NCBI GenBank assembly: GCA_000091205.1
Contig: AP006486.2
DNA length: 64,000 nucleotides
Reading direction: 5' to 3' (one strand)
From: Cyanidioschyzon merolae
Taxonomy: Eukaryota
Part shown: piece by piece, positions 607 to 54,024 of the stretch
Position numbering within the stretch: position 1 is the stretch's first letter
Layout: the number at the start of each line of letters is the position of its first letter
The notes under the pieces: model-generated
Seen by the model: only the letters and a program-made list of their open reading frames with translations
Told to the model about the DNA's origin: nothing
The model's database searches: none
Program-made: the position numbers and the translations under genes

Positions 607-1434
607 ATGTTGGGCGTGATTGGTGGCACGTCGCTGTTCCACTCACAGCGCTTTGCGGGCTTTGACAGACGACACGTCCATACACCATACGGGGAGGTCG
701 TCTGCTATTGCGACAGTACAGAACCGTCTCTGGTATTCTTGCAGCGGCACCATGCGGACGCTCATCGTGGTGTTGACGCGTATACGCCTCCACACCGTAT
801 AAACCATCGTGCAAACCTGTACGCCTTAAAGCAAGTCGGCGTGGACCGCTGTGTAGGTGTCTACAGTGTCGGATCTCTGAACCCCGCAATTCGAGTAGGG
901 ACCTGTGTGCTTACCCACGACTTTTGCTCCCTCGCGCAACTCTGTCGGGCGGAAACGTTTTATGACGAGGACATGCGAGGCCACGCAGTCATCCGCTTTG
1001 ATCAGATGCTTCGCGACCGAGTTCTGACGTCGCTCAAGGATCTGTCTGCTGCTTCCCAGATTGGCGATTCGAAGACAGCAGAAACGTCGTCTAAGCAGTC
1101 GTTTGTCATGGCTTCAACGGCTTCTGCAGCAATGAGTTTCCACGACGGTGGCGTTTACGTGCAAACCGCTGGACCCCGCTTCGAGACACCTGCCGAGGTT
1201 CGCATGCTGCGAACGTTCGGAGACGTGGTAGGTATGACTGGTGCCTCCGAGGCCGTCTGCTGTGGCGAGCTGGGAATCCCCTACATGCAAGTCTGCTTTG
1301 TCGATAACCTGGCGAATGGTCTGATCAGTGGAGCAGAACAAACGGAGATTGCTGAATTTCACGACAATGTGAAGGCTAATCTCAAACGCGTAGAGGTAAT
1401 TATTGACCGAGTGATTGAGACGTTGCGACATTGA
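607..1434 (+). CDS. 5'-methylthioadenosine / purine nucleoside phosphorylase family (MTAP-like; PNP_UDP_1 fold)
   Basis: The ORF 469-1434 was trimmed to the ATG at 607 (MLGVIGGTSLF). Motifs match MTAP: IGIIGGTGL~LGVIGGTSL, RH..PS.VNYQANIWALKE~RHH..PHRINHRANLYALKQ, GPRFSSRAE..FR.WGADV.NMT..PE~GPRFETPAEVRMLRTFGDVVGMTGASEA. It stops at TGA. Confidence 0.8.
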   Translation: MLGVIGGTSLFHSQRFAGFDRRHVHTPYGEVVCYCDSTEPSLVFLQRHHADAHRGVDAYTPPHRINHRANLYALKQVGVDRCVGVYSVGSLNPAIRVGTCVLTHDFCSLAQLCRAETFYDEDMRGHAVIRFDQMLRDRVLTSLKDLSAASQIGDSKTAETSSKQSFVMASTASAAMSFHDGGVYVQTAGPRFETPAEVRMLRTFGDVVGMTGASEAVCCGELGIPYMQVCFVDNLANGLISGAEQTEIAEFHDNVKANLKRVEVIIDRVIETLRH

Positions 1435-2998
1435 GCGCTGTAACCTGGGCAGGGTATTGCAAGGTCTCGCGCTATCTCGCTTGAACGCCTCGTATGAGTC
1501 GTTCACCCGTAGAACGCTTTGAAATGGTGTCGAAACTGGAGCTTGTCGGATTATACGAGCGCTCCTTTTATAATGGAATGCTTGGTGCGAAAAAAGTATC
1601 AAGTGACTGCGCATTGCTGGATATTCGAGCACGATGACAAATAGATCATGGCCGTGACAAGCGGCATTCGGACCGGCAACGCGGCAGCTGAGATTGTCTA
1701 TGGCGCCGAATGCATACAGACTTGCTCTACCAGTTCTTTTAGATCGAAAGAACATGCGTTCAAGGATATTCGTTCGTTCCATTGAATTTGGGGCTCATCG
1801 ACAAGTGCCCGCTCAGGCGGAAGCATTCGCAGAGGAGCCATACCTCCATGCAAACGCTTGCGAGCATGCGTACGGTTTCGTGCACGAATACATGCATACG
1901 CTCACAGAAAAACTCAGACAAATGCATATGAATACTAGCCCCGATGCGTTGATACATGAGCATCTACCCGTGCACGTGCATACACGAACGTTCACCGCCG
2001 TGTACCTCGCTGCAGAAAAGACAAGTGCCTAACGTGCTTGATGGCGTTTGGCATCGAGGGTTCACCTCTCGGAAAGCATCGCATGCAGCCGGTGATCCGA
2101 AACGGATTCCAAAAGTCTCTGGATTCAGAGATACCAATATCAGGAAACTCTCTGTCGATCAACCGCAAGCAAGCAAGATTGTGCTTTGCAGCGTCGCTGT
2201 GCTCCATCAAGATCCATAAACATTTGCTCAACTCCATTATACCGTTGTTGTTGCATGATGCGAGACATTCACGTAGCGTATCCGCAAGCAAACGCGAGGT
2301 TTTTACAGTCTAGAACCCAGCCGGGGCATCGTTCGCGGCAATATTGGGCACTCAGGCTCCTGTGCTGACGCAGACCAGACTCTCGGTGTCGAGCTGCTAC
2401 GCACACCCCGCGTATAACATAACATATGAGACAGGTACACATCTGTTTGCTCCATGCACGCCGGATGTAACCAAGGTCCCCACTGATGCGTGCTGGTCAT
2501 TGGTCGTCGGGAAATCGATCACCATTACCACCATCATGATCATCATTTTCAGCACTTGTCCGCTGGAGAATTGCTCGGCTCTTCTGTCCACGCATGCGGC
2601 AGCGTGCACTGCGCAGGGCCTGTAGAGACCATCACCCTACACGCAAATACTGAAAGCCTCGATCCCATCTTGGTCCACGCGAACGTTCTTACGTACGACC
2701 CGTGCACATGCAGGCGCCATTGTATTCACTGAATGAAACGAGTACGAGCGGCGCGCGTGAACGCTCATCATTCCTTTCACGAAACTGGGGAAGCTGTGGA
2801 CCAGGAGCCACGTCCAAGGCCAAGCGCCACCCGATTCAGTGTTTCGCATCTTGCCTCTTTCGATATCAAGCCTTGGGAAATGCGATCAGAGCGGACGCTC
2901 ATCCGAACTCCACCCTTTGCAGTTCATGTCATGGGTGTGTACGTCCCGCGTCCAGAGAGATACCTCACAAACTGAAGGTGATCAGCGTGCGTCTCGCT

Positions 2999-4489
2999 CT
3001 AGTTCCGTGAAGCGTGTCGTGTGGTAGCAGCATAGCTGCCGTCCTCACCTCGCTGAGACCCCAGCGTGCGTATGCGCTGGTGCCAGTGTCGGATACGCTC
3101 AACGAGTTTCGCTTGCGAAATCGTCTGCAGTACTCCATCGTGGACCACCCGGCGAGCACCTATCCAAACATCCGTCACTTGGTCCGGTCCCGCTCCATAA
3201 ACCAAAGCCGAACACACATCGTGCACAGGCATTGTTGAGAGGCCATCTGCAACTCGTACGGCAATGAAATCGGCTGCCTTGCCAGGTTCCAAGGAACCCA
3301 GCAAGTGGTCCAGTCCCAGTGCTCGGGCGCCTTGAATCGTCGCCATACGCAGCACCTGATAGGCCGTAAGGCAATCGCTGCGACCTGTACTTCCTTTGGC
3401 CAAGAGCGCTGCAAGGCGCATCTCAGCCCACATGTCGAGTCGGTTGTTACTGGCAGCGCTGTCCGTTCCGAGGGCGACGTTGATGCCGGCGTCCAGCATC
3501 TTGGTAAGCGGAAAAACACCACTGCCCAGTTTCAAATTCGACGCTGGACAGTGCACGACCGAGGCACCTCTCCTGCGCACCAGCTCGATATGCGCATCCG
3601 TCACATGCACCATGTGCACAAGAGTCCAGTTTGCAGCCAACAGGCCGAGTCGCTCTAAGTTGTCCAGTGGCGCACCTGCAAACTCGCTGCGGTGGCAGAC
3701 AAGTACCCCACGATCCAGCGTTTGACTCGCCTTCACCTCCGCAGCTGTCTCGTGCATGTGGATGTGCACCCGTCGGCCTTCATCCATCGCTCGTTTCCCG
3801 ACCTCACGGAGGATTTCCTCTGATACCGAGTAAGTTGCATGGGGCGCGTAGCTGCTTTCCATTAAGGGAATCTCCCGGTGGGGATTTTCTGGCGAGTCCT
3901 TTAGGGTGCCTTCTGCGATGATCTGCGTCAAGCGGCTCGCTTTTTGAAAGTATTCTTCTGGGCCAGAGCCGTAGCGGCTCGGAAAGTCCACCACGACCAT
4001 GCCGAGCACTGCACGCATGCCGGCTTCCCGGCACACTTGCGCGGTGACCTCTGGATACCAGTACATATCGTTTAGGGTGGTGCAACCGCTTCGCAGCAGT
4101 TCCGCAACCGCCAGCATGCTACCGTCACGAACAAAGTGCTCGTCGACCAGTTCGCGTTCCAGTGGCCAGATCACGCTACGCAGCCAGGTGTCTAGCGCTT
4201 GATCGTCTCCAAGTCCTCGAAACAGGCTCATGGCAGCGTGTGTGTGCGCGTTGATCAGACCAGGAAGCAGAGCGTGCTCAGAGAGGCACACTCGCTCGGC
4301 GCTGGGGTACCGCTTCCACGCCTCTTCTCGCGGAAGAACGGCCGCTATCCGGTCACCCTCTAGAACAAGCGCGTGATCTTCCAGCCATAGCGGCTCGTTG
4401 GCATGGGTTTCATCCCATACTGGAAGCAGCCACCGCGCAGCTACCACTTGTTGAGCGACGGAACGAGCGCTCCCACGAACCAGGGCCAT
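2999..4489 (-). CDS. Amidohydrolase-superfamily nucleoside deaminase (MtaD / MTA-SAH deaminase / ATZ-TRZ-like)
   Basis: A 496 aa ORF starting at ATG. It carries the N-terminal metal-binding motif PGLINAHTHAAMSLFRGLGDDQALDTWL typical of MtaD/SsnA/guanine-deaminase-like amidohydrolases. Its C-terminal GTDSAASNN...D region is the conserved Asp-containing end of this fold. Confidence 0.75.
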   Translation of the reverse strand: MALVRGSARSVAQQVVAARWLLPVWDETHANEPLWLEDHALVLEGDRIAAVLPREEAWKRYPSAERVCLSEHALLPGLINAHTHAAMSLFRGLGDDQALDTWLRSVIWPLERELVDEHFVRDGSMLAVAELLRSGCTTLNDMYWYPEVTAQVCREAGMRAVLGMVVVDFPSRYGSGPEEYFQKASRLTQIIAEGTLKDSPENPHREIPLMESSYAPHATYSVSEEILREVGKRAMDEGRRVHIHMHETAAEVKASQTLDRGVLVCHRSEFAGAPLDNLERLGLLAANWTLVHMVHVTDAHIELVRRRGASVVHCPASNLKLGSGVFPLTKMLDAGINVALGTDSAASNNRLDMWAEMRLAALLAKGSTGRSDCLTAYQVLRMATIQGARALGLDHLLGSLEPGKAADFIAVRVADGLSTMPVHDVCSALVYGAGPDQVTDVWIGARRVVHDGVLQTISQAKLVERIRHWHQRIRTLGSQRGEDGSYAATTRHASRN

Positions 4490-7400: not shown

Positions 7401-7600
7401 AACTTTTTTAGAGCTCGGTACCATTCAGTGTCAGACGTGATGGACCCCAAGAAGCAAACGAACATATGGAATGACGGTGACGGGACATGTTTCGATTCTC
7501 TGACCACCGTATCCAGCTGATCGGTGTATGCTTTGTAGGCTTCAGTCCGAGCGCGTATGAACGTCCAAACGGATCGTGCTAACGATATCCTCCAGAAGTA

Positions 7601-7780
7601 TACGAGGCCGCTAGAAGTGTACAACGGATACGGTTGCACACAGGCAAGAGGCATCCATTTTGCAGCGTGTTCATTGAATCGGAAAAAAAGAAGTTACCGA
7701 GGCCGCTAGAAGTGTACAACGGATACGGTTGCACACAGGCAAGAGGCATGCATTGTGCAGCGTGTTTATTGAATCGGATC
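7601..7780. repeat. Diverged tandem duplication, 2 units of about 80-90 bp separated by an A-rich linker
   Basis: The unit gaggccgctagaagtgtacaacggatacggttgcacacaggcaagaggcatSCATTKTGCAGCGTGTTYATTGAATCGGA occurs twice (7601-7688 and 7692-7780) with a few substitutions. Confidence 0.6.
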
Positions 7781-14393: not shown

Positions 14394-15334
14394 CGCAAAG
14401 CCCGCCTATTTGCTCCAAGACTGAGCGTTTCGTTGTGCGGTGGAGCCACGGAATCCAACATTTCTATTTGTTCGCTTGTACACGGACATGATAAGTACGA
14501 TTTACACACACCAGCGCTATGCAACAAGCGAGGCATTCGCATACGAACGATGTCCAGTATATCGGTCTAAACATCGAAAGATACTCGGTTCGGAGGATAT
14601 TTAGCGGATGCAGTATGCAACGGTGCACCGCACGAGCGCAGCACAAGGTCCAGCCATTTCATATGTTTGCGCCGATGTTCCGCTTGAGTCACCAAGGAAA
14701 GGAACACCTGGTTTATTCGTGAGCCACTCGGTTGACCACTTACCACAGCACGCTTCCTCGGCCGCAGACAGGCAAGCGATCTCGGGTATCGATGCGACTT
14801 GCTGAAGACAAAGTCGACCACTTGAATAGGTCCAAACCAGCCAGCTGCGGAGAGACTGGTCGGTCCCGTTCAGCCAGGCTTTCTTTGCGTGAGTTTCTGA
14901 GGTACACCCCACGCCCACCCTACACTGTTGAAGCTATTTGGCATAACTTGAGCGTCCCAGTTGGACAGCAGAACACCAATAGACACGCGAAATTGAACCA
15001 CGGCCGGCCGGGTCTCTGTCACGGAAGCTTGACGCGGTGACTGCGCTGGGTCTCCTATGAGGAACCGGTCGGACGACCACGAGCGATCCGTTCCACGATA
15101 GCACCGTCTGCCAGGACGTCAACAGCTAAGCGAAGCGTGCGCACGAGCGCATCCAGTCTCTCGTCGAAGCGCTCTAGCTGGGCTTCGAGCACCCGCAGCG
15201 CTACCACTGTGCGCTGGTACGCCGCTGCCGCCTGCCGTAGACACTCCGTTTCTCGTTGTAGCTGCTTCTCCCAACTGGCAGGCGATCCCTCCGTCGTCGA
15301 CGTCTCCGCTGCCATGGAGAACACGCACACACCG

Positions 15335-17960
15335 ACAACGAATGCCTTTTACAAGAAAAAACGTTGCTGCCGCAAGTGGTATAGTAGTGGCGACAAACGC
15401 ACCGTAGACAAGGAGTCTTCAGCCGACGTGCAGACGCATCTCAGTCTTTCTCGACCGGCCACCCACTACTTCTTCCAACATTTTTTCATATAGTTCGAGT
15501 TTGAGAGGTTGTCCAACAAAATTCTATCTCGTCCACTCTGGAAGTCTATTCTCCAGCACCGCACGTCTCCTTATATTGATAGCGGCATTAATGTCTCGGT
15601 TCACAAACTCCATCCGTTTCTTGCCATCACTGGATGTACTTAATAATGCGAGTAGTCCACGAACTTTCGCTCTCCTTTCCATTTGCTCCTCCGTCAACGG
15701 TCCGTGCTTTGCTATTTCCTCAGGGCTCCGCTAATACTTTTCCATCTCGACCCTCTGAAGTGTACACCCCAGTTCATGGTGTGTATACGATGTTCGGAAG
15801 TCATCTACGGGTATCGTAACGAAACGCCGTGCGCACTCCTTGCACGTTTTTGTCGTTGGAGCTGGTGTAATGCCTTTTTTCGACGCCCAGCGCCCTGCTC
15901 CATACGCTACTACGAGCCTCTGACTTTCATTCTCCCTCAGGGCGCTCAACTGATTGAAAAAGTTCGAGAACGCCCGCTGCTTCCCACAATACAAATTCAT
16001 ACGCAAACGAGCCCACCGGGGCTTGGTGGATTCTTTCCACAGGGCATCCCAATGAGCAGCGCGAACTTCCATGAACTCCCGAAATGCTTCAAAGTCGGTT
16101 CCTCGGCTCGTCACCTCGCTCAAAGCTTCCAGGTGATCCCTCACTCCTGACTTCTAGGTCTCATTTTGTTTCCTCGCATTCATTATACCGGAATCCCGGT
16201 AGGATCTCGCTCTCGGGAACTTGAAAACTCGCATGTCTTTATGACGTAAATTGTCGTCGACACTATCTTCCGCACGCTTGGGTACAGCGACGGTTATGAT
16301 ATTTGTGTTTCCGGGGTCCGCGCCAACGACAAAGCCGTTATCGTGCACTTTCTGTGTTGCACGATCCACCTCCTTCTTTTCTCGATGCTTCGCCGCGTCA
16401 ACGACAAAGCCGTTATCGTGCACTTCGTGTGTCGCAGGATCCTCCTTCTTCGTACCTTCATCCTTCGCCACGGGCGGAGCTGGACGATCTGTCTTTAAGC
16501 GCCGATAGTGTACAGACATGGCTACTCCATCGTTTTCGATCATCCCAGTGAATACCTTTCGCTTGCTCACTTTCAGACGTTTGAAATCGACGAAATTCTT
16601 CTTCCAGTGCGTCTCCCGGCTTTCGCCGGAGAACTCCTCCCTGCTGACATTGAACTCCGGACTGATCTCCCTCATGATGCCGTAAAGGACGCCTGAATCG
16701 ATAGTCACGAAATGTGACCTGATGTTGCACATTGGAACCACGTTGAAGCGCTTCCCCATTAGGAAAGCCTTCCGCCTCTCCCACTCTTCATTTGTCTCCT
16801 CATTCAGCTTCATTTCCGCCTTGCGTTCCAGCTCTCCGTCCAGCAACACGAAATAGCGCAGGGCGAGGCGATAGTATCTTTCCTTATCTTTTTTCGACTC
16901 TGATAGCTTGTCTGTTGGACTCAGCAGCCCCAGTACCGCACGATGCTCTTCTACAACCGCACGGATGACAGAAGCTTCATTCGTGCTCTCGTTTGACGCC
17001 TTCTCTCCGACGAATTCGATCTCCTGTTCATGCTTGCGATCGTTCGTGACGCCATTGGTAATCGCCCATTTTCCTTTGCGAGCGATGCCAGGGTACAGCG
17101 CAAACACGGCGCGTATCATGAAGCGTTCGAGGTTCATAGTAAAATGGTTCTTCAGGTTCCTGATGTACTTCATCGCTCCGTATGTGTAAATGCACCAGTC
17201 AATTTTGTATCGAGTACCGTCGAAGCTCTAAAAGGGATGTTTTTCGTGGAGGGCATGCACTAGCACATTTTCCCTCGGCGCTTCCGCTGTACCAAGCATC
17301 AGGTGTCGAATAAAGGTCTTATCGAGAAACCCGTCCGGAATCCCGACCGTTTCCATCTGCGCCACGTCGCGATACATCTCCCTCGCCATATGCATCAGTC
17401 CTGAAGACGCCTTGACAATACTCTTGGAGTATGACGCAACACTGTTTTCGATAGCGTCTCGCAGCTTTTCCCTGTACGGATCCTTGATATTTTTAAGAAG
17501 ACAGACTTTCACCACCTTCTTGTCGCACAGTCGTCTTTCGTGCCGCCTTCGACGCAGAGCGTCCCACTTTCAGTCCTTCTTCTCTTCCTTTTCTTCTGGA
17601 CTTGGCACTGTTTTTCTGTTTTTTCTGGCAGCCCGCGACACTGGGCCTCCAGGATCATCGACTTGCTTTTCATAACTTCCTTTTTTTTGTTTTTTTTTGG
17701 AAAACAACGCTCCCTCCAACGCCTCTGATATAAACAGCGAGGAAAACTTGAATAAACCAAACTGAGGGTTGAAATATAACTGAACTGAAAAGTACACTCT
17801 GCTATGACTTTAACGCAAATGCAACTTGTACTTGAGAGCAACACGCTCAAGATCGCGATCCCGTTTCCCTTCAACGACGACATGCGCGTCGTATCTCATG
17901 CCTGCCAGATATGGAGGTGCGCGTATCGACCGCGATGCCCCCTGGCACTGTATGGGCCGA
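15335..17960 (-). mobile_element. Fanzor-like (eukaryotic TnpB/OMEGA-nuclease family) element, copy A, decayed
   Basis: The minus-strand ORF chain 17673->15524 is about 715 codons. It has a KKRKRRR NLS-like N-terminus, a [14 protein letters not shown] RuvC-I-like motif, a TKTCKECARRF...HH..C zinc-ribbon, and an NRDINAAINIRRRAVLEN RuvC-III motif. The 3' terminus lies near 15335 (aacgaatgcc...), and the same terminus is seen in copy B and at 53385. The 5' flank shares similarity with copy 3 out to about 17960. Confidence 0.7.
15524..17673 (-). pseudogene. Fanzor/TnpB-like nuclease gene, copy A, interrupted by in-frame stops
   Basis: An in-frame TAG at 16154-16156 sits where copy B has TGG (Trp). 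An in-frame TAG at 15731-15733 sits where copy 3 has CAG (Gln). An in-frame TGA in the N-terminal region sits where copy 3 has CGA. Otherwise the frame is colinear with copy B. Confidence 0.65.
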
Positions 17961-18839
17961 GGGGCCCACCATGCGCACCCGGTTCAGTCGGATATCCATG
18001 CAGACCCCAACGCACCGCAAGAACACTTGGATGAAATCGATGCAGATTTGGCTGAAGCGACGGTTATGCGAAAACACGCTCGAATCGTTCCCCAGAAATG
18101 TAGAAGGCTCCTACCGCCTCAAGCGAACTGTTCGAACAACCATATGGGAACGTAGACACGGAACCAGTCGCGCCAGTAACGCCCGCCTTGACTCTATACC
18201 GGAACTACAACCTAGCATACACATGCGAGTACTGGTGGGAGGCGCTGGAGTTCCCGGGACTTGCTCGCGGTATCCAGTGGCTCGCCAAAATCCGCGTTGG
18301 TGGTTGCTGACTACCAGCACCTGCGCTAAACCATATAGGAACACTGGAATCGCAGTGGGAATCACACTGTCCCTGCTGTGGAAACGATAAACCCGAGACG
18401 CTGACATATTTAGGCTTACAGTGCGCGCGCTGGAAGCAGGAGCGCAGCGAGCTCCTTGAAGGACGGCATCAGCCGGGTATCACCGTGATAGTCGAAGGCC
18501 GGACACTCACTTTGAGTGCAGCACTGGCAACTGATGGTCCGCTAACGGAGCCTCAGCGCTCATTCGTGGCCAACAGACTCACGTGCTACCTTCCAAGCGG
18601 AAGGTCTAGCGAATCGGACGCGCACACGGGTTTAGTATGCTTTCTGCGCCTATCCACTGTGGTGAGCGTCAAGCACAAACCCGCATTGCCAACCGACAAC
18701 AACGCGTTCCATGCATGATCACGAAGGAGAGAGACGACTCCCAGAATATATCTTAACGGCCAAGTGTCTCCAGCGTGTCGTGCCGCGAAGGCAAGCTTGC
18801 ATCCGCAGACCGTCCGAGCACAAACTGACGACGAGACCC

Positions 18840-18995
18840 GATTCTACGTCGGGTGAAGCACCCCTCGAGCCGACGCCCTCTGTGGTATGGAAAAGCCGTT
18901 CTAGCTCGATAAACTCTCTGCCCCAGCGGTTCAAGCGCAAAGGCGGATATGGAACGGCAGGTATTAGGTACCCACGACAGGACGTATGAGACGAT
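18840..18995 (+). repeat. Fragment of the roughly 650 bp element-R repeat family (see 21741-22400) inside the spacer of the Fanzor inverted repeat
   Basis: It encodes ..PLEPTPSVVWKSRSS.., which matches the SDP.S.EP.LE..PSVV.QSR segment of element R copies at 21840-22037 (minus) and 48692 onward (plus). Confidence 0.5.
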
Positions 18996-19154
18996 CAGTA
19001 TCTCCAAGAAGAAGTATAGGTAATGTAACTTGGAGGGAGGGGGCTTTATGGATATATTACCGCGCGCTGAAGTAAAACGCAAAACAAAAGAGAACGAAAA
19101 GAAAAAGCGCACAATAGGAGAATGCTGGCCCAAGTAAACGTCTTATCAATAGAA

Positions 19155-21705
19155 AAATTGCCGTCGTTGAAGGGAAACGGGATCGCGATCTTGAGCGTGT
19201 TGCTCTCAAGTACAAGTTGCATTTGCGTTAAAGTCATAGCAGAGTGTACTTTTCAGTTCAGTTATATTTCAACCCTCAGTTTGGTTTATTCAAGTTTTCC
19301 TCGCTGTTTATATCAGAGGCGTTGGAGGGAGCGTTGTTTTCCAAAAAAAACAAAAAAAAGGAAGTTATGAAAAGCAAGTCGATGATCCTGGAGGCCCAGT
19401 GTCGCGGGCTGCCAGAAAAAACAGAAAAACAGTGCCAAGTCCAGAAGAAAAGGAAGAGAAGAAGGACTGAAAGTGGGACGCTCTGCGTCGAAGGCGGCAC
19501 GAAAGACGACTGTGCGACAAGAAGGTCGTCAAAGTCTGTCTTCTTAAACATATCAAGGATCCGTACAGGGAAAAGCTGCGAGACGCTATCGAAAACAGTG
19601 TTGCGTCATACTCCAAGAGTATTGTCAAGGCGTCTTCAGGACTGATGCATATGGCGAGGGAGATGTATCGCGACGTGGCGCAGATGGAAACGGTCGGGAT
19701 TCCGGACGGGTTTCTCGATAAGACCTTTATTCGACACCTGATGCTTGGTACAGCGGAAGCGCCGAGGGAAAATGTGCTAGTGCATGCCCTCCACGAAAAA
19801 CATCCCTTTTAGAGCTTCGACGGTACTCGATACAAAATTGACTGGTGCATTTACACATACGGAGCGATGAAGTACATCAGGAACCTGAAGAACCATTTTA
19901 CTATGAACCTCGAACGCTTCATGATACGCGCCGTGTTTGCGCTGTACCCTGGCATCGCTCGCAAAGGAAAATGGGCGATTACCAATGGCGTCACGAACGA
20001 TCGCAAGCATGAACAGGAGATCGAATTCGTCGGAGAGAAGGCGTCAAACGAGAGCACGAATGAAGCTTCTGTCATCCGTGCGGTTGTAGAAGAGCACCGT
20101 GCGGCACTGGGGCTGCTGAGTCCAACAGACAAGATATCAGAGTCGAAAAAAGATAAGGAAAGATACTATCGCCTCGCCCTGCGCTATTTCGTGTTTCTGG
20201 ACGGAGAGCTGGAACGCAAGGCGGAAATGAAGCTGAATGAGGAGACAAATGAGGAGTGGGAGAGGCGGAAGGCTTTCCTAATGGGGAAGCGCTTCAACGT
20301 GGTTCCAATGTGCAACATCAGGTCACATTTCGTGACTATCGATTCAGGCGTCCTTTACGGCATCATGAGGGAGATCAGTCCCGAGTTCCATGTCAGCAGG
20401 GAGGAGTTCTCCGGCGAAAACCGGGAGACGTACTGGAAGAAGAATTTCGTCGATTTCAAACGTCTGAAAGTGAGCAAGCGAAAGGTATTCACTGGGATGA
20501 TCGAAAGCGATGGAGTAGCCATGTCTGTATAGTATCGGCGCTTGAAGACAGATCGTCCAGCTCCGCCCGTGGCGAAGGATGAAGGTACGAAGAAGGAGGA
20601 TCCTGCGACACACGAAGTGCACGATAACGGCTTTGTCGTTGACGCGGCGAAGCATCGAGAAAAGAAGGAGGTGGATCGTGCAACACAGAAAGTGCACGAT
20701 AACGGCTTTGTCGTTGGCGCGGACCCCGGAAACACAAATATCATAACCGTCGCTGTACCCAAGCGTGCGGAAGATAGTGTCGACGACAATTTACGTCATA
20801 AAGACAAGCGTCTGCTGATGTTGTCAAGAGCTAGATATTACCGGGAATCCGGTATAATGAATGCGAGGAAGAAAATCGTTTCATGGAATTCAGGAATGAA
20901 AGATCACCTGGAAGCTTCGAGCGAGGTTACGAGCCGAGGAGCCGACTTTGAAGCATTTCGGGAGTTCATGGAGGCTCGCGCTGCTCATTGGGATGCCCTG
21001 TGGAAAGAATCCACCAAGCCCCGGTGGGCTCGTTTGCGTATGAATTTCTGTTGTGGGAAGCAGCGGGCGTTTTCGAACTTTTTCAATCAGTTGAGCGCCC
21101 GGAGGGAGAATGAAAGTCAGAGGCTCGTAGTAGCATACGGAGCAGGGCGCTGGAAGACCCAAAAGGGACTATGCCAGCTCCAACGACAAAAACGTGCAAG
21201 GAGTGCGCACGGCGTTTCGTTACGATGCCCGTAGATGACTTCCGAACATCGTATACACACCATGGACTGGGGTGTACACTCCAGAGGGTCCAGATGGAAA
21301 AGTATTAGCGGAGCCCTGAGGAAATAGCAAAGCACGGACCTTTGACGGAAGAGCAAATGGAAAGGAGAGCGAAAGTTCGTGGACTACTCGCATTATTAAG
21401 TACATCCAGTGATGGCAAGAAACGGATGGAGTTTGTGAACCGAGACATTAATGCCGCTATCAATATAAGGAGACGTGCGGTGCTGGAGAATAGACTTCCA
21501 GAGTGGACGAGATAGAATTTTGTTGGACAACCTCTCAAACTCGAACTATATGAAAAAATGTTGGAAGAAGTAGTGGGTGGCCGGTCGAGAAAGACTGAGA
21601 TGCGTCTGCACGTCGGCTGAAGACTCCTTGTCTACGGTGCGTTTGTCGCCACTACTATACCACTTGCGGCAGCAACGTTTTTCTTTCGAAAGGCGTTCGC
21701 TAGCA
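19155..21705 (+). mobile_element. Fanzor-like element, copy B; inverted duplicate of copy A with its 5' end truncated at about 19155
   Basis: It is about 97% identical to copy A at the protein level over MKYIRNLKNHF...NRDINAAINIRRRAVLENRLPEWTR. Similarity to copy A stops at ...cccttcaacgacg near 19155, and the 3' terminus lies near 21705. Confidence 0.7.
19367..21515 (+). pseudogene. Fanzor/TnpB-like nuclease gene, copy B, with frameshifts and in-frame stops
   Basis: There is an in-frame TGA at 19468-19470 and a TAG at 20530-20532 where copy A has CAC. A 2 nt deletion near 21165 frameshifts the zinc-ribbon region. The TAG at 21306-21308 is shared with copy A. The RuvC-III motif NRDINAAINI lies at 21440-21470. 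Confidence 0.65.
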
Positions 21706-21740
21706 GCCTTCGATGATGCGTTCTTCGGGAACAGCTGCGT

Positions 21741-22400
21741 TTTTTTTTCTGATGAAAAAATGGTTAGATTCACTATGGATCCCAGAATTCGGAATGGATA
21801 ATGGCTTTCGGGAAAGCGTCCACGATGAAGCGCCTACCTTCAAGTTCTATCACGCATACTTCCTCTCGGATATACTGGTCGTTTCGTATATTCTATCGTG
21901 CGCCGAGCCTGCCGTGAACACCCGCCGTAGCGCTTATACCACTGAAGCAGATGCCACACGGAGACAGAACGGCTTTGCCATACCACTGAAGGCATCGACT
22001 CGAGGCGTGGTTCCTCCGACGTGGGGTCGGAGTACATAATATATCTGGGAGCCTGTAAGCTGCGCAGACAGACGCACTGCCTGTGGCAGCGCGGAGCGAT
22101 CTACAAGGAGTCCACTGTGACCACGGAGACGCCCAGACGCAGCATCCTGCTCCAAGTCCCCGAATGAAATGCGTTGCGGACGAGTTGTGCAGGTATCGCC
22201 ACAAAACCTGCCATTGGAGGAAGCATGAAGCACTAGCTAGCCCCGAAGACTCGTCCGGCTCGCGGGACCTTCCGCCTAGAAGGTAAAGTTTCGAAGATGC
22301 GGAAACTTTCCCCCTTTTCCATGAGTCATATCAAGGTCGAAAGAAACTGTTATCGAGTTGCTAGTCAGTTGTTAGTTTCTGTTCTTTCGTCTCTAGGAGA
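21741..22400 (-). repeat. Element R, copy i: roughly 650 bp non-coding repeat with a short A-tail (SINE/retroposon-like)
   Basis: It is about 80-85% identical to 27866-28515 and to the reverse complement of 48335-48993. On its own (minus) strand it ends ...ttttttcatcag followed by A9 (the T-run at 21741-21749 on plus). The 5' ends of all three copies coincide, which argues for a discrete unit. No conserved ORF is present. Confidence 0.65.
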
Positions 22401-22796
22401 AAGCTCGCTGCTCACGGTCGGGCACAACTCGAGGGCCCACCAGTTCGAAAACTGGCTATTGCTGCTGCTGCCCCTATGCAACGCGCTGGAGTGCGCTCGC
22501 TCTACAACCTCCTGTCCGCGCCCTTGGCCAAAACTGACCACCTGTGATCAACGCGCGATCGCAGCGTTGTGTGGTTGCGTCGCTTCGCGAGGAAGCGCGC
22601 AGGCCCACGACCCGTGTGCGGATGACGCCGACATTGAGATCGCGCTCGCGATGGCGATCGCAAACAGACTTCAGGGCTCGCCGTTGTGCTCGCGACTCTG
22701 TTTCGTGAACAAAGCCTGCGCACTTAGCACGCTCATTTTATATCGATTCATTTAGGAGCGCCAGCAGTGATCTAGAAGGAGAATAGAAGCGCTACA

Positions 22797-27728: not shown

Positions 27729-27865
27729 GTCACCCTGCAGCTGAAAGCACAGGCGAAACGGCGCTTTCCTGAACCGCTACCAGCCACGTAGATACAGCAC
27801 TTTGAGCATTGAAAAAGTAAGGCTGCGGGCGCCTGCCGCAGTGCCGGTGCGCTGGCTCTGTTATC

Positions 27866-28515
27866 CCTTTTTTTCGATGACGAAACGTTTATATGGACCG
27901 TGGATCCCAGATTGCTGAATCCATACAGGCTTTCGGGAATGTTTCCATTATGCAGGGCAATACTCCCAAGTTCCGTCACGTATACTTCCTTTCGGATATA
28001 CTGGTCGTGTTGTACATGCTATCGTTCACAGAGTACCCGCTGTGAGCGCTCGCCGTAGCGCCTTTACCGCTGGTGCGGATGAAGCGCGGAGACGGAACGG
28101 CGTTGGTATGCCCATAGACATGTAGGCTCGAGGCATGGTGCACCTGATACGGTGTCGGAGTACGTAGTAATTCTGGGAGCCTGCAAACTGCGTAGACAGA
28201 CCTACTGCCTGCGGTACCGGGAGGCGATAAACTAGGAGTCCACCGCGACCGGGGTGATATCCAGATGCAGCTTAACTGCCCCTAGTCCTGGAATAAACTG
28301 CACTGCGGACGAGTTGCTCAGATCTCACTGAGGCACGAGGCACAGTGGGGAGCAAGAAGCGCAAGCGCGGCAAACTCGTCCGGCTCACGGGACCTTCCGC
28401 CTGGAAGGTAAACTAGCGATAATACGGAAACCTTTTCCCCTTTTACCGTCTACGTTAGAGAGGGAAAGAAATCGCTATCTCGTTCCTAGTTCGTGGTTCG
28501 TCTCTGTTCTCTTTT
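27866..28515 (-). repeat. Element R, copy ii (solo copy, not next to a Fanzor gene)
   Basis: It aligns end to end with copies i and iii. The T7 run at 27866-27872 corresponds to an A-tail on the minus strand. Confidence 0.65.
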
Positions 28516-30202
28516 CTATCCCACATCAATCTATGATACCGAATCGCAGCTCGAGACGCTTCAGCGGTAGACATGTTCAATACACTTGGTGCGGTGTGCC
28601 TGCATGCTAGGGTGCGTTATTCGGATATGAACGTGTGTCTCTTGCACCTCTGGCGGGTATTTTCACGAACGCTACCTGGGGAGGTTTCGAGCACCTGCAC
28701 GCCACGATGCAGTGTTCCGATACCTGGGTTTACCTTTTGGCACCTCGTGGACGCATTTCCATGCACCCTTCACGGGCAGGTTTCGTGCAATTGCATGCTA
28801 TGGCGTGGTGCTGGAATGCAAAAACGTGTCATTTGTGTCGTATGTCGGGGCTGTATACACGAGATCTGTTCATGACTGCAGATAAAGCGCGGTTTATGGC
28901 TCGCTATGCGATTACGTTCCCGTATCCGGAAGCGTTTGGCGAAAGCCCCGTTCGAACTTCGCTAACAGCGCAGGATGCCCATGACTTGTGTTTGCGGAGA
29001 ACTCGTTCGTTCTGTCTGTCTCCGCAAGTCTCCCGGCAGATGCATACGAACATGGATTCTTGGCCGCTGCACCATATGGAATTTCCCGACGAATGCACCA
29101 TCTGATGTAGAGCTCTTCTCGGATCGAGTTTCGCGAACGAGTCGCTCCACGACGTCCCAGACAGCTTTGTACGACTAGAAGAGTGTTGGAGCATCTTGCA
29201 GTCCAGAGAGATGTTCCCGTATCATGACCAAGCAACACGGCGCCCTCATGGAGCAAGTCGAAGTGCTCACCTCTAGCGCACGCTCTCCTGTGCGCCCCCT
29301 GGTACTTGCAACGCTCGTTCGCTCGAGTCCAGCGATGGATGCTGCTGTCTCACATGTACCTCACAAGCGAATCTCCGCTGCCTTGTCTGGGCGTCTCGAA
29401 TGCGATGCTCGACGCTTTAGCGCCGAATCGTAGGTGCCAGTCGGGCACCGCCCGGTAATCCGCTCGGACTATGCGTTATGCGTCTCGTCAATCTAAACGA
29501 GGACCATTGCAATACGCTTGGAACTGCTGCACGGGTCAAGTGATGTGCCACGGTCAGCGCCGACCTGGGACTCGCTCCAAGCCACTTGTCCGTGTTGCAT
29601 CGATCAGCGCTCATGCCGTGCACACGATGCTACCCCGAATTCCTATTACACGCTTCATTTGGACGACCAGTGAGCATCCAAACAGCCGCTCACTTCAGGC
29701 TCTGGTGAATCCTCCGTACAAGGGGCGCTTGCACGACGATTTCTTTTCGCACTGGAAGAGCGGTCGGCCTCGTGACCCTGTTCGCTCGTTAGTCGACCAG
29801 TTGCTCAGGACCAGCACCCATCAGATGTCAACAAGACGTCACCTTCAGGGAATACCAAGCCCGTAGACCAACACATTCTGCAGGGAGTACCGAGCGCAGA
29901 GTATTTCTGATTAAAGCTTGCCTTACAAATGCCCAATGCATAGCTTCGTTGTATGAGGACACCAGCTTCTGCAAGGCGTGCTCCAGTCAGAAAGATTCTG
30001 CTTTGGGTACGCCATACACAAAAGCCCACTGCATAGCTTCATCCTACAAGAAGGGCTGTCACGACGGCCTTGCGTCTGTTCTGGCAGCAGCGTCGGGTGC
30101 GCAACGTTGCGTCGTGGTGCGGTAGGGCCGCAAAGAACAGCAACGAAGGCTGTGCTTGGGGGGTTTTTTATCCCGGCAAAGAGCTCTTTTCGAGATTGGA
30201 AT

Positions 30203-32269: not shown

Positions 32270-33100
32270 CCCGACCTGTACAGAGCAGTCTGCATCCGGG
32301 CCAGAAAAGGCATACGCATCCCAGCCTGCAGTGTCGTGCATTTCCGATAATCCGAATTACACATAGAGCAGTCTGCATCCCGACCAGAAAAGGCATACGC
32401 ATCCCAGCCTGCAGTGTCGTGCATTTCCGATAATCCGAATTACACATAGAGCAGTCTGCATCCGGGCCAGAAAAGGCATACGCATCCCAGCCTGCAGTGT
32501 CGTGCATTTCCGATAATCCGAATTACACATAGAGCAGTCTGCATCCCGACCAGAAAAGGCATACGCATCCCAGCCTGCAGTGTCGTGCATTTCCGATAAT
32601 CCGAATTACACATAGAGCAGTCTGCATCCGGGCCAGAAAAGGCATACGCATCCCAGCCTGCAGTGTCGTGCATTTCCGATAATCCGAATTACACATAGAG
32701 CAGTCTGCATCCCGACCAGAAAAGGCATACGCATCCCAGCCGGCAGTGTCGTGCATTTCCGATAATCCGAATTACACATAGAGCAGTCTGCATCCCGACC
32801 AGAAAAGGCATACGCATCCCAGCCTGCAGTGTCGTGCATTTCCGATAATCCGAATTACACATAGAGCAGTCTGCATCCCGACCAGAAAAGGCATACGCAT
32901 CCCAGCCTGCAGTGTCGTGCATTTCCGATAATCCGAATTACACATAGAGCAGTCTGCATCCGGGCCAGAAAAAGCATACGCATCCCAGCCTGCAGTGTCG
33001 TGCTTTTCCGATAATCCGAATTACACATAGAGCAGTCTGCATCCGGGCCAGAAAAAGCATACACATCCCAGCCTGCAGTGTCGTGCATTTGCAATGGAGT
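32270..33100. repeat. Minisatellite, 83 bp unit x about 10, two alternating unit variants
   Basis: The unit is cacatagagcagtctgcatccSgRccagaaaaggcatacgcatcccagcctgcagtgtcgtgcatttccgataatccgaattaca. Its periodicity shows in the identical 77 aa minus-strand ORFs spaced exactly 83 nt apart from 32357 to 33021. It lies in the intergenic region upstream of Rab7. Confidence 0.9.
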
Positions 33101-33259
33101 CACAGGGGCGCTGCCTATGATAGGGAGTGGGGCGCGTTCGTGGAGCATCCGCGAGGAAATGTTGAGCGCTTCTATTCGCTTTTTTATGGGTGCGCTTCTC
33201 AGGGCCCACCATATCGGACACAATCGTAGAGTGGTGAGGGCCTTTTGGAGTCGTCGTTG

Positions 33260-34009
33260 ATGTCGACCTCTCCGATCCTTTTGAAACTGGTCATCCTGGG
33301 TGACTCTGGAGTAGGCAAGACTTCGTGTCTGGAGCGTTTCGTTAATCGACGCTTCTCGCTGCAGTACAAGGCCACCATCGGAGCCGATTTTTTAACGAAA
33401 GAACTGGAACTTTTTGACGATAGCCCCTGCGACGAAGGCGTCACTGCTCCCAAAGAAAAAACAGGAACGTCGGAGCCTGGAGGCGCTGGTGTAGCGACTT
33501 GCGAGTTCAGCACCGAAGCGTGCGGAAGAAGACGGCAAGTGTGTCTGCAAATCTGGGATACGGCCGGACAAGAACGATACCAGTCACTTGGTGCTGCATT
33601 CTATCGTGGTGCAGACGGTTGCGCCCTCATGTTCGACTTTAGCGAGGCCAGTTCGCTCGCGAGTGTAACGTCGTGGCGCGAAGAGTTTCTGTTGCTAGCG
33701 GCACCACCAGCTGCGTCTACGTTTCCATTTGTGCTTCTGGGAAACAAGGTCGACCTTGTGCGCTCCCAAACATCGGTATACGAAGCCACTCGCGAGCATG
33801 CGCTTTCGTGGTGTGCCGCTCATCACGCGATACCATTTTTTGAGACCAGCGCTCTCGAGAATACGGGCATTGACCGAGCCATGACGACGCTGGCGCGAAC
33901 AGCGCTTCTCTATCACGAACAGGTGCACAAAGCAGCCGGCTATGAACCAGATGCCATTCTCGATTCCCTGCAAAACAACCGGGCGGCAGCGAATAACTGC
34001 GCGTGTTAG
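33260..34009 (+). CDS. RAB7: Rab7-family small GTPase
   Basis: The ATG is at 33260 (the ORF track start at 33245 is TTG). It has the P-loop [62 protein letters not shown] and ETSALE, which is near-identical in pattern to Rab7 ([41 protein letters not shown]...[23 protein letters not shown]...GNKIDL...ETSAKE). An insertion sits in the switch region. The C-terminal CAC prenylation motif is followed by a TAG stop. Confidence 0.85.
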   Translation: [249 protein letters not shown]

Positions 34010-48334: not shown

Positions 48335-48993
48335 TAGGGTGCTGACAAGCGACAAGCGCGGCATCGACGACTGCGAGAAAGAACTGAAACGAACCACTGA
48401 CTAGCAGCTCGATAACAGTTTCTTTCGACCTTGATAGCAATCGATGAAATCGGGAAAAGTTTCCGAATCTTCGAAAGTTTATCTTCCAGACGGAAGGTCC
48501 AGCGGTCCGGACGAGTCTGCGGGGCTAGTGCTTCATGCTTCCTCCAGTGCAAGGTGCTATGGCGAGACCTGCGTAGCTCGTCTGCAACACAAGCAATCGG
48601 GAAGTAGGGAAAGGAAGCCGCGCCTGGGCGTCGCCCTTGTCGCAGTGGACTCCTGGTAGATCGGTTCGCCCTGGCGCGGGCTCCCAGAACGATGATGTAC
48701 TCCGACCCCGTGTCGGATGAGCCCTGCCTCGAGACGACGCCCTCAGTGGTCTTGCAAAGCCGCTACGTCTCAGTGCAGCATCTGCTTCAGCAGTATATCA
48801 GCGCTACGGAAGGTGCTCGCGGCAGGTACTCGGCGCAGGATAGAACATACGAAACGACCAGTATATCCGAGACCAAGTATGCGTTATGGAACTTGGAGGT
48901 AGATGCCTTATGGCGGACGATTCCCCGGGAGCCATTATCGATTTCGAGTTCTGGGATCCATGGTCAATTGTCCACGGATTGTCATCGAAAAAA
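48335..48993 (+). repeat. Element R, copy iii, plus orientation, with an A6 tail at 48987-48992 pointing toward Fanzor copy 3
   Basis: It aligns over its full length with the reverse complement of 21741-22400 and 27866-28515. It ends ...gtcatcgAAAAAAg. Confidence 0.65.
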
Positions 48994-49136
48994 GAAATCG
49001 ACCGCTGTGATCGAAGCGCTCGGGCCGAGGCGAGGCGCGATCTCGAATGCGGCGCGATCCAAGCGCTATGAGTATATATATAAATTTAGACGGTTGCATC
49101 GCCACCGGCATGGCGCGGTGTGCGCCAAGCAGAGAT

Positions 49137-49248
49137 CCAGTGATAGCTCACTCGCTTCCCATGCGAGGCTACGAGTTGGTAGAGCATTCGGCTGTAGTGG
49201 TACTTTGCATCTACCGAAGGGTCCCTGGTTCGAGTCCGGGTCACTGGA
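49137..49248 (+). tRNA. Probable tRNA-Tyr(GTA) with a 15 nt canonical anticodon-loop intron and an extra 24 nt insertion (intron-like) in the D-arm
   Basis: The 7 bp acceptor stem is perfect: CCAGTGA/TCACTGG. The D-stem is GCTC/GAGC around the D-loop AGTTGGTA, with 24 nt (49150-49173, containing the hairpin CTCGC..GCGAG) inserted after the 5' D-stem strand. The anticodon stem is TTCGG/CCGAA, and the loop CTGTAG|tggtactttgcatct|A matches the eukaryotic tRNA-Tyr loop CUGUAGA split at 37/38. The variable loop is GGGTC and the T-arm is CCTGG-TTCGAGT-CCGGG. The discriminator is A, followed by a T7 run. Confidence 0.55.
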
Positions 49249-49251
49249 AGA

Positions 49252-49258
49252 TTTTTTT
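49252..49258 (+). terminator. Pol III-type oligo-T terminator (T7) immediately 3' of the tRNA
   Basis: The sequence is ttttttt, starting 4 nt after the discriminator base. Confidence 0.4.
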
Positions 49259-49959
49259 CGAAACTTGAGAATCTCGGGATCTGCTCGAAACCACTGCCTA
49301 GGTAAGTCATTTTCTGAATCGGGACTCTGCAGCAACTAGCCGATCCCCGAAAAATTTACAATTCTTGTTCGCAGCCTGCGCAAGGATACTTGCGTCCCGG
49401 CAGACGCTTGTCCCTTCCGCAAGCTCCAACGAGAGTGCCTGGAGGAATCATGTTACAGTCCGTCAAACATTCTAGGATCACCGGGTGCCGGGCATTTGGA
49501 TAGTGCAAGGCCGCTGGATGCGTCTTTGCGAATTCTGTACACTCACAGAATGGCTTCGCGTTTTGTTGATTCGTATCATATCCAGGCGCACAGTACGACA
49601 CATGTGAGGAACGTGGACACAAGGCCGGAACCTGTGGAAAGAACGAATTTCCCGCGACTCCTGGGAGAATCTGCGCGGCATAAGAACAGCTTTGATTTCG
49701 CCGCACCACCAACCAGATGAGGACACACGGAGCAGTTGGCCGGCAGGTTTGTCCCGATCGCCGGATCTTCTTACAATGTAAACTTGGAGACTCGACAAAA
49801 AACCTTGCCCCCATTATGCGCTGCAATATATTAGAACAGGAGCCGTTCGCTAATTGCTCAACCGCGGTCTGTATTCGTTTATCCTGAATAACGATTCATT
49901 GGTTCCGGCACACACCTCGAAAGGAGGCACCGCCGCCTCCAAACACCTCTCGAAAGTTC

Positions 49960-52700: not shown

Positions 52701-53384
52701 CGAGACGCCTCAGCGATCGATGAAGGACACGTGTTCGACAACCCGCCTTGGCACATGCTTGTACGCATCGCACTGCAGCTGAAATAAACTATCGTAGATC
52801 GGAAATTGACGTAGAACGATCTCCTGCTATAGACTCTGTCGCTGGTGCCGACGCTACTGCCCATCGCAGTACCGCCCCGACATACAAGGGGCTGTTGGGG
52901 CCTGACACAAAACCCCTCGACGCTTCTATCAAAAGCGTAGCGTTCTCTGCAGCTTCCGCTTGTGTGGATGAGTTGTGCATCAATCTTCTCGTTAGGAATT
53001 TCATTTGTTTTATTGATCGTAACCAAACAAGGTAAGGTAGTATTCCTGGACTCGTATATGCGTCTGTTCGTGATGCTTGTTATGCATGCCGCACGGACGC
53101 TGCAATGAGGAAATGACCTGAATTGTGCTTCGATCTTGCGTCATACGCTGGTACTGATGGCAGTTCAAGCCATTTGCATGCTATCGTCTTTGTCCAAGTT
53201 ATGGTGCTTGCTACTCTCCCGGATCCGGTGATCTTGGTAGAGGCATCGCATACATAGAGTGTCTATACTTAGCATTCCATTTGACCGACGCATCCGCCAA
53301 AAGCACATACTGTATTCTGATCTACTCTATAAGATTAGTTTCAAGAGCCTAACCCGAACATCGAGCCCGGAAGCGACAAAGCGA

Positions 53385-53490
53385 ACAACGAATGCCTTTG
53401 AGAAAAACGCTGCCGCCCGCGGTGTACAATAGTGCCGAATGACCTGCCCTAGACATGAAGTCTCCAACTGACGTGCAGACGTTTGCAAAA
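53385..53490. repeat. Solo fragment of a Fanzor-element 3' terminus
   Basis: The fragment aacgaatgcctttgagaaaaacgctgccgc...gtgtacaatagtgccgaatgacctgccctagacatgaagtctccaactgacgtgcagacg matches the terminal about 100 nt of copy A (15337-15440) and of copy 3 (49965-50030). No adjacent ORF is present. Confidence 0.5.
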
Positions 53491-54024
53491 AATACAGAGC
53501 ACCGTAGGAAATTTCCTTATGCCTCCTCTACGGTATTCGTCGGAGAGCTGTGGTGAAGTCCATTTACGATCGTTGTGATTTCTGAGCGCAGCACTGCGGA
53601 ACCCTTGGCACTACGTACTGGTGAAGTTGTTGTTCGAAATGGTCTGAGTTCTGCCTAGTTTCTGAAAAGGCATTGAGCGCTTGTGCTAGTTGCGCTGAAC
53701 GCTAGACAATCTACGGGAGATTTAGCTCGGACTCTGGACAATTGACGGGCGATCACTCGTGCCGCTACGCAAAAGAGGTTTTTGACTGGATACGCACACT
53801 TACGCGATCGATTCTAGCCGATGACGTGATCGGCAGCTTTCGCACCGGAGACGACCTAACCCGAGAAAGTACAAGGCATGTTTGTCTCTGATCCGCTGTA
53901 CCGGGGCTAAAGAGTAGTTCGCTCACCTGCTGTAAGTAGAGCACCGTTTCCGCTGGGTACCGAACATGACAGGTGCTTCACAGCTGGACATCGTCACCAC
54001 TGCCAGCGTCCGCTTCCTTTGGTA

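Follow-up and report, generated by a model that had tools for sequence, protein, structure and literature searches.

The non-coding repeat TE-N2_CMe of Cyanidioschyzon merolae: a probable retroposon carrying the tail of a reverse transcriptase-encoding element

Repeat copies and Fanzor units at the locus

The 64,000-nucleotide stretch of Cyanidioschyzon merolae DNA analysed here (contig AP006486.2, hereafter the window) contains three copies of a non-coding repeat, R, together with three units of the RNA-guided nuclease gene Fanzor1, an orphan Fanzor-unit end and a truncated long interspersed nuclear element (LINE) (Table 1). The R copies and Fanzor-like units were located by comparing the window with itself by BLAST, and further copies were collected from metagenome contigs, whose loci are numbered here with the prefix L. 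A 911-aa glycogen phosphorylase open reading frame (ORF) in the window is 100% identical to that of C. merolae 10D (BAM79237.1/XP_005535523.1), which settles the host. The 3′ end that R has in common with the LINE, its ragged 5′ ends and its target-site duplications (TSDs) point to a retroposon.

Sequence comparison identified R as TE-N2_CMe, a non-coding Repbase family of C. merolae of ∼640 bp. It is found again as the 5′ 635 bp (in the orientation of Fanzor) of CMe-1A, a Fanzor1 element 3.2 kb long, as reported by Bao and Jurka (2013; Mob DNA 4:12, PMC3627910). Measured against the CMe-1A consensus, which was taken from Additional file 2 of that paper, R copies are 75–82% identical to positions 1–644, with no sequence-level difference between R and the published family, and Fanzor units A, B and C are 81–87% identical to positions 648–3169. 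Both the family and its tie to Fanzor1 were thus already known. For TE-N2_CMe and CMe-1A the authors found no terminal inverted repeats, stated that TSDs “could not be determined” and gave the class as unknown; copies were ∼80% identical to the consensus and numbered ∼70 for TE-N2 and ∼150 for CMe-1A (Bao and Jurka, 2013). CMe-1A/TE-N2 very probably corresponds to the 3.2-kb interspersed element reported earlier in 253 copies, with a WSV486-like ORF, which makes up ∼5% of the genome and is transcribed (Nozaki, 2007; PMC1955436). The same paper lists 26 elements of the kind without long terminal repeats (non-LTR elements), three of them with an intact reverse transcriptase (RT), and eight transposase-related class II elements whose matches to bacterial transposases are so weak (E = 0.071 to 6e-7) that no clear DNA transposase is known in C. 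merolae; LTR retrotransposons were reported to be absent (Nozaki, 2007).

C. merolae is a model “minimal” eukaryote, and its largest repeat family, CMe-1A/TE-N2 (∼5%), has been without a class or mechanism since 2007–2013. The TSDs, the 3′-anchoring and the LINE-derived tail described here are additions to the published account and would give the family a testable class; the published CMe-1A consensus begins with CGATGAC, and so omits the T/A-run. In the literature that we searched, the classification of R as a LINE-tail retroposon seems new.

Table 1. Copies of R, LINE-type sequence and Fanzor1 units in the window.
Feature	Position	Strand	Description
R1, TE-N2_CMe copy	21740–22388	−	A9 at 21740–21748; 5′ start GAAAGAACAG at 22388
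R1 5′ extension (“group 2”)	22389–22520	−	∼130 bp, absent from CMe-1A; common to L083 and L080
R2, solo TE-N2_CMe copy	27868–28516	−	A7 tail; 80% identity to CMe-1A 1–643 over 646 bp
R3, solo TE-N2_CMe copy	48376–48996	+	tail A6GAA; 75% identity to CMe-1A 1–636 over 642 bp
R′, 5′-truncated LINE 3′ end (last ∼1.2 kb)	17940–19157	+	tail ...GTCTTATCAATAGAAAAA; 87% identity to reference LINE 3061–4259
Fanzor1 unit A, pseudogene	15339–17939	−	CMe-1A 648–3168, 84–87% identity
Fanzor1 unit B	19159–21699	+	CMe-1A 703–3169; left end cut by ∼55–78 bp exactly at the R′ tail
Fanzor1 unit C, pseudogene, different upstream module	49965–52691	−	CMe-1A 648–3145
Orphan ∼100-bp right end of a Fanzor unit	53385–53481	−	CMe-1A 3078–3158, 85% identity

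When R1, R2 and R3 are aligned together with their flanks, the similarity begins near GAAAGAAC and stops at ...GTCATCG followed by A6–A9, and one 17-mer, ACGACCAGTATATCCGA, is invariant in all three, where 0.05 would be expected by chance. R1 is 82% identical to the CMe-1A consensus 2–644 over 651 bp, and R3 carries an internal deletion of ∼28 bp. The pairwise identities of 77% (R1/R3), 72% (R1/R2) and 66% (R2/R3) are lower than the 80–85% given in the original prediction, an earlier reading of the window, which had described three full copies and one fragment with identical boundaries. The three copies stand, with R3 starting at ∼48376 and not at 48335, and so do their common 3′ boundary and their ends in ...CATC(A/G)G followed by A9, A7 and A6. 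The supposed fragment (18837–19040, +) is no piece of R but the core of the truncated LINE R′ that is homologous to R ∼370–576, and the 5′ boundary proved to be ragged or extended, R1 having ∼130 bp of extra sequence.

R1 and R2 lie in the same orientation 5.5 kb apart and were considered as a pair of LTRs; this was rejected on account of their 72% identity and of the host GATA and Myb genes that lie between them. Nor does R have the features of a solo LTR, as its ends are not TG/CA and the length of its TSDs is variable.

Fixed 3′ ends, variable 5′ ends and a tail common to a LINE

A scan of the metagenome contigs for the invariant 17-mer gave 83 loci, which BLAST and clustering, with the window included, resolved into 17 distinct near-full R loci; many 5′-truncated R pieces were also present among the clustered metagenome loci. 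All 17 near-full loci share the 3′ end ...GTCATCG and a short A-run. Their 5′ ends scatter: five lie within 5 nt of AAAGAAC, one at +74 and others at −13, −62, −110, −136, −205 and −215, and several copies run upstream through the 2.5-kb Fanzor unit. Three copies, R1 included, share a different, non-Fanzor 5′ extension of ∼130–215 bp, which spans −149 to 0 in L083 and −158 to 0 in L080, and of which the R1 version is 5′-truncated relative to both. Despite the cluster at AAAGAAC, R has no discrete 5′ end of the kind expected of a strict short interspersed nuclear element (SINE). Ragged 5′ ends without A-tails would, according to the original prediction, have marked the copies as segmental duplicates; the 5′ ends are ragged, and an A-tail is present in every one of the 17.

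The absence of an ORF conserved between copies was confirmed across the same set, in which no frame is open throughout, there is no lag-3 periodicity, and most alignment gap runs (264 of 330) are not multiples of 3. A hidden ORF in R was ruled out on these three grounds. The palindromes GGATCC, CCATGG and AAACGTTT are conserved.

Among the truncated pieces are head-to-head inverted pairs of 5′-truncated R with their tails outward (L053 6267–6914, also in L036; L006 1333–1641, also in L018 and L069). Such pairs could have arisen if the copying process switched templates or snapped back.

The LINE that shares the R tail was defined from metagenome contigs, on which its RT gene was first met beside Fanzor homologues and two further copies were then obtained. 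Together, L092 1–3420 (−), L093 1116–5358 (+) and L094 1–2879 (+) describe a non-LTR retrotransposon of ∼4.26 kb. Its ORFs in all three contigs contain an RVT_1 domain (Pfam, E=3e-22) with the RT motifs RGLRQGD.ASPLLFN and LLFADG, and homologues of the RT ORF are annotated “retroelement, alive [C. merolae 10D]”. LINE copies start at positions 1, 2988, 3061, 3694 and, at two loci, 3968, and all end at 4258–4259, which is classic 5′ truncation. R′ in the window is 85–90% identical to L093 4176–5352, L094 1677–2879 and L092 332–1, all of which lie directly downstream of RVT_1 ORFs, and the ORF at 17911–18390 has a homologue in the post-RT ORF of L092.

R ∼330–646 is collinear with the last ∼320 nt of this LINE at 68–84% identity, the terminal 30 nt included, and the R terminal motif GTAAACGTTTTGTCA..GAAAAAA falls within the LINE-homologous ∼310 nt; at the very end, AATGTAAACGTTTTGTCATCGAAAAAA in R corresponds to AAGTAAACGTTTTGTCAATGGAAAAA in the LINE. 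When the R consensus was aligned with the last ∼650 nt of the LINE, one hairpin block of ∼35 nt (ACCTTCYAGGCGGAAGGT...) was alone common to both upstream of the shared tail. A short resemblance between R and the 5′ end of the LINE (AAAGAACA..ACTA) was seen by eye alone and is not established.

Retroposons that share the tail of a LINE include the stringent-type pairs UnaSINE1/UnaL2 and tortoise SINE/CR1, and, as LINE deletion derivatives, RIME/ingi. R resembles these in that it is non-coding, takes its 3′ ∼300 nt and terminal motif from an RT-encoding LINE, and has variable TSDs and a short A-rich end that appears templated. It differs from them in having no head transcribed by RNA polymerase III (Pol III), in its ragged or extended 5′ ends, and in that it can carry a 2.5-kb antisense Fanzor1 upstream.

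Target-site duplications and the case for LINE-mediated retroposition

TSDs were sought by comparing the 28 nt past each tail with the 300 nt upstream of the copy, with 272 mismatched pairs as controls. The original prediction had proposed to look for such duplications, and three perfect ones of 13, 13 and 14 bp were found, ATCACGAGCTGCG (L010), TCGCATGCGCCAA (L083) and ATCTGCGATTCGGA (L080), against a control maximum of 11 bp. They begin 0–2 nt after the tail, adjoin the copy's own 5′ end (for the 13 and 14 bp of L083 and L080 as well) and belong to the youngest copies. Two R copies that have a 5′ extension in common begin 12 nt from one another and each have a TSD of their own, a pattern characteristic of copying that starts at a fixed 3′ end and stops at a variable 5′ position. 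Weaker flanking repeats were seen in L032, with an 11-nt match containing one mismatch (∼12/14 by hand count), and around a truncated R′-type LINE tail inside another R tail, with a 14-bp TSD matching at 13/14 positions (hand count). Within the window, R2 is directly bordered by GGGATA at 28517–28522 and 27862–27867, a lone 6-bp match that is weak evidence, and R3 by a degenerate 15-bp repeat, ATCGACGACTGCGAG (48361–48375) and ATCGACCGCTGTGAT (48997–49011), which matches at 11/15 positions by hand count. The 3′ flank of R1 reads A|TCGCAG in the orthologous contig L061.

The A-run sits between the element and the 3′ copy of the TSD, and reconstructed empty sites have no A/T-run, so the tail belongs to the element and not to the target. 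The suggestion that R and the Fanzor ends favour the same T-rich targets is not supported: the targets are not T-rich and start with ATC(G/A/T), usually after G(T/G)(C/T), echoing the element's own ...GTC|ATCG. At least 4 nt of the motif that precedes the A-run are repeated at the start of the target in 7 of 24 junctions (P=3e-6 against shuffled flanks). Copy-specific covariation between this motif and the target is marginal beyond the shared ATC preference (29% against 14.5% in mismatched pairs).

Taken together, the non-coding nature of R, the 3′ end that it has in common with an RT-encoding LINE, its TSDs and its ragged 5′ ends are best explained by target-primed reverse transcription by the LINE. 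We regard R as a non-autonomous, LINE-tail non-LTR retroposon that uses the LINE machinery in this way, and put the probability of this at roughly three in four. The starting template would be an R-sense RNA, antisense to Fanzor in the composite, whose 3′ end would consist of the ∼310-nt module and GTAAACGTTTTGTCATCG-A(6–9), homologous to the resident ∼4.3-kb RT-encoding LINE. The LINE machinery would recognise this tail and copy the RNA into nicked target DNA, with a nick preference for G(T/G)(C/T)|ATC(G), the motif in which the element itself ends (...GTC|ATCG). The 3′ end would thereby be fixed and A-rich, the 5′ ends ragged and the TSDs 6–15 bp long, and the 5′ extensions would represent transduced upstream sequence, up to a whole antisense Fanzor unit. 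We infer the RNA intermediate, the trans-mobilisation by the LINE, and the AAAGAAC 5′ end of solo R as a transcription start by the R/Fanzor junction. The consensus fold is stronger in the R sense (z −8.6) than in the antisense (z −3.6; column shuffle), with an alifold structure conservation index (SCI) of 0.24; this is a hint at most, and it is not relied on since dead transposable-element copies give no reliable covariation.

The description of R as SINE-like thus holds for a retroposed non-coding unit with an A-rich 3′ end, TSDs and a LINE tail, and not for a strict SINE. A classical Pol III SINE would combine a tRNA-, 5S- or 7SL-derived head and a fixed 5′ end with a LINE-derived or A-rich tail, and R would suit this in being short and non-coding, with an A-rich tail, TSDs and a tail common to a LINE. 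The head that the original prediction had proposed to seek was not found by any of the three routes taken: ARAGORN gave 0 tRNAs, Rfam gave 0 matches at gathering thresholds and two irrelevant ones at E≤10, and the 5′ region of the 17 copies contains no positionally conserved A/B boxes. Given also that the 5′ ends vary and that ∼640 bp is at the long extreme for SINEs, we consider a Pol III origin extremely improbable.

A different route would make R and CMe-1A DNA elements, moved by an HUH/Rep-type enzyme (rolling-circle, Helitron2- or Replitron-like) that nicks GTC|ATCG at the fixed end and at the target. Replication that is one-ended or terminates imprecisely would then account for the ragged far ends, and the TSDs would be non-canonical, perhaps with a contribution from Fanzor cleavage. 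A target motif that repeats the terminal motif of the element follows the logic of HUH enzymes, and Fanzor/TnpB genes classically partner DNA transposons. The elements CRe-1 to CRe-3 of Chlamydomonas have intact 3′ ends, 5′ truncation, TSDs of 7–19 bp only on truncated copies, and extra 5′ sequence (Bao and Jurka, 2013, section 8), and Replitron-1's de novo insertions show variable TSDs and “fuzzy ends” (Craig, 2023; PMC10288648); in the latter case it was speculated that Fanzor contributes to the variable TSDs. In our set as well, full composites are without a detectable TSD and short forms have one. R/CMe-1A is further like CRe-1 to CRe-3 in its Fanzor1 cargo, its one intact end with truncation at the opposite end, its variable TSDs and the extra sequence at the ragged end.

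The two groups part at their ends and targets. CRe-1 to CRe-3 are non-autonomous Helitron2 elements, whose ends are those of verified Helitrons and whose insertions follow TTTT, whereas R has a LINE end and inserts at ATC(G). A further difference may be that the fixed end of R is on the Fanzor 5′ side. R lacks the 5′-TC/CTRR-3′ ends, the terminal hairpin and the A|T or TTTT target of Helitrons and Helitron2 elements; its ends are (T)AGAAAAAAGAAC... and ...GTCATCGA(n), its targets are GKY|ATC(G), and TSDs are present. Homology to R's fixed end is found at the 3′ end of a LINE that encodes RT and whose own copies show LINE-type 5′ truncation. Replitron-like proteins were not detected in red algae (Craig, 2023), and non-LTR elements and weak “bacterial transposase” matches are all that is reported from C. 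merolae (Nozaki, 2007). The LINE-derived fixed end, the absence of Helitron ends and targets, and the fact that the only clearly autonomous machinery reported is non-LTR all disfavour a rolling circle, which we judge unlikely. In Fanzor orientation, (C/T)GAT precedes the T-run in about 9–11 of 27 copies (hand tally), which resembles an IS605-type target motif. Compared with IS200/IS605, R has clear TSDs of 13–14 bp, and no TnpA was seen.

Several points weigh against LINE-mediated retroposition of R. The RNA intermediate of R is a deduction from sequence. The 5′ 330 nt of R have no significant similarity to the LINE except for the ∼35-nt hairpin block, Pfam identified no endonuclease domain in the LINE ORFs, and the full copies of the LINE used here were obtained not from the window but from C. 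merolae-like algae, on metagenome contigs. The A-runs of R are short (5–9) and not longer in the youngest copies, and so look templated and not like post-transcriptional poly(A). For the full Fanzor+R composites (L051, L063/74, L007, L011, L087 and window unit A) no convincing TSD was found, and those of L051, L063/74, L087 and window unit A, which are also older copies, have no ATC target. Finally, the same insertion syndrome is seen in the Chlamydomonas DNA elements CRe-1 to CRe-3 and Replitron-1, so the signatures alone do not separate retroposition from rolling-circle transposition.

Fanzor units and the CMe-1A composite

Stops and frameshifts interrupt each of the window's three Fanzor copies (15239–18100, 19100–21760 and 49900–52800), all of them pseudogenes, and an intact 752-aa Fanzor (P0001) is encoded in metagenome contig Ga0504780_000149 (L087). 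The assignment to Fanzor1 comes from a profile of 20 homologues, which matches PDB 9cf0 (Parasitella Fanzor1, 2e-18), 8gkh (SpuFz1, 1e-11) and 9cer (GtFz1, 4e-5), and the protein is near-identical to CMe-1 (Bao and Jurka, 2013). The Fanzor1 identity was not shown by Pfam, which gave a weak Cas12f1-like_TNB match, by a single-sequence PDB search or by AlphaFold (predicted local distance difference test, pLDDT, 35). Units A (15339–17882) and B (19159–21699) are inverted relative to each other and 97% identical, compared with 72–82% for other pairs of the family, pointing to a recent duplication or gene conversion. The left end of unit B is complete in the orthologous contig L030, where it abuts the R′ A-run. 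The Fanzor ORFs also contain in-frame 75-bp tandem repeats (16318–16469, 20568–20722 and 50917–51212) that encode a variable, acidic 25-aa repeat, present in 2 copies in A and B, ∼4 in C and more in L089.

In the canonical CMe-1A composite, R lies on the 5′ side of Fanzor and antisense to it, with the A/T-run outermost. Read in LINE/R orientation, an antisense Fanzor is always found directly 5′ of LINE-type sequence, which is R in CMe-1A, the last 1.2 kb of the LINE in unit A and L087, and the complete LINE in L092 and L093. Unit A and R′ thus form a composite of the layout [Fanzor antisense][LINE tail], which recurs with an intact gene in L087. In L092 and L093, the two copies with a visible LINE 5′ end, the antisense Fanzor1 abuts that end at CMe-1A ∼648–670. 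Contiguous R+Fanzor composites are present in L051, L063/74/79, L007/49/66, L011, L085, L088/89 and L090, and the alignment of L051 with L074 is unbroken from −2617 to +575 at 78% identity, so the composite diverged as a whole.

As an alternative to shared targets, the original prediction had offered a composite duplicated unit, with the tail of R next to the Fanzor 3′ end. This came nearer the truth, since CMe-1A is a composite, but the geometry is another one, with R on the Fanzor 5′ side and antisense. The distances that had suggested it were confirmed, at 41 bp for R1 (21699 to 21740) and ∼975 bp for R3 (48993 to 49965). Both copies differ from the canonical composite, R1 being a 5′-extended R, and both placements are separate insertions. 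A partial R just past a Fanzor 3′ end occurs also in L006/L018, and these three cases are too few to tell a preference for such sites from the clustering of nested repeats.

We considered R as the omega-RNA of Fanzor and ruled this out, because R lies 5′ of Fanzor, on the other strand. A guide RNA would be expected at the 3′ end of Fanzor, where a stem-rich region is conserved.

Alternatively, a Fanzor transposon of the DNA type could have R as its integral left-end or promoter module, and the solo copies could be deletion remnants or segmental duplicates. CMe-1A has been described in this way (Bao and Jurka, 2013), R lies upstream of the Fanzor ORF in at least five independent composites that diverged as a unit, and the conserved R palindromes could be protein-binding sites. 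However, solo and 5′-extended R copies have perfect TSDs of their own in unrelated flanks, R is found with a non-Fanzor 5′ extension as well, and LINE copies with no history of deletion also end in R-type tails. We hold this explanation to be very unlikely.

Retroposition of R through the LINE may have a wider implication. We suggest, tentatively, that the whole CMe-1A Fanzor1 family (∼150–250 copies, ∼5% of the C. merolae genome) (Nozaki, 2007; Bao and Jurka, 2013) could have been amplified by LINE-mediated retroposition and not by a DNA transposase, with Fanzor as an antisense cargo 5′ of a LINE tail or of a complete LINE. The ∼270-bp R/Fanzor junction would then be a divergent promoter, launching the 640-nt R transcripts that give rise to solo TE-N2. 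This possible spread of CMe-1A by retroposition appears to be absent from the literature that we searched. The role usually ascribed to Fanzor/TnpB nucleases is to help DNA transposons of the cut-and-paste or peel-and-paste kind to persist. A Fanzor1 that multiplies antisense on a LINE tail would need a different rationale for its nuclease, as the “homing after excision” logic of TnpB would not apply to an RNA-guided nuclease gene kept on a retroelement, and CMe-1A would be a natural retroelement with a programmable nuclease gene.

An analogy with HAL1, which is derived from L1 and has kept ORF1 alone, was drawn by Bao and Jurka (2013). HAL1 and CMe-1A would both be non-autonomous, LINE-dependent families that keep one protein gene in the long term. 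HAL1 keeps the sense ORF of the LINE itself, whereas CMe-1A keeps a foreign, antisense RNA-guided nuclease.

In unit B, L030, L068 and L090 the left end of Fanzor is bordered directly by an R-family tail; in L030 and L090 the two meet at ATCG. L090 (267–5910) holds a complete CMe-1A and a second, inverted Fanzor unit; the insertion point of the former's A-rich tail is a GAATCG within the latter's left end, and a tail/left-end junction of this type recurs in L030 and in unit B of the window. The orphan Fanzor end at 53385–53481 lies outside unit C, ∼700 bp from its left end, in an arrangement (52609–54000) that is repeated in L018 at 80% identity.

Two further repeats were noted in the window. 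An 83-bp unit is repeated 9.7 times at 97% identity at 32282–33090, ∼150 bp upstream of a Ras/Rab-like ORF (33245–34009). At 7594–7778 lies a 95-bp tandem duplication (1.9 copies, 94% identity), the unit of which ends in GGAAAAAA.

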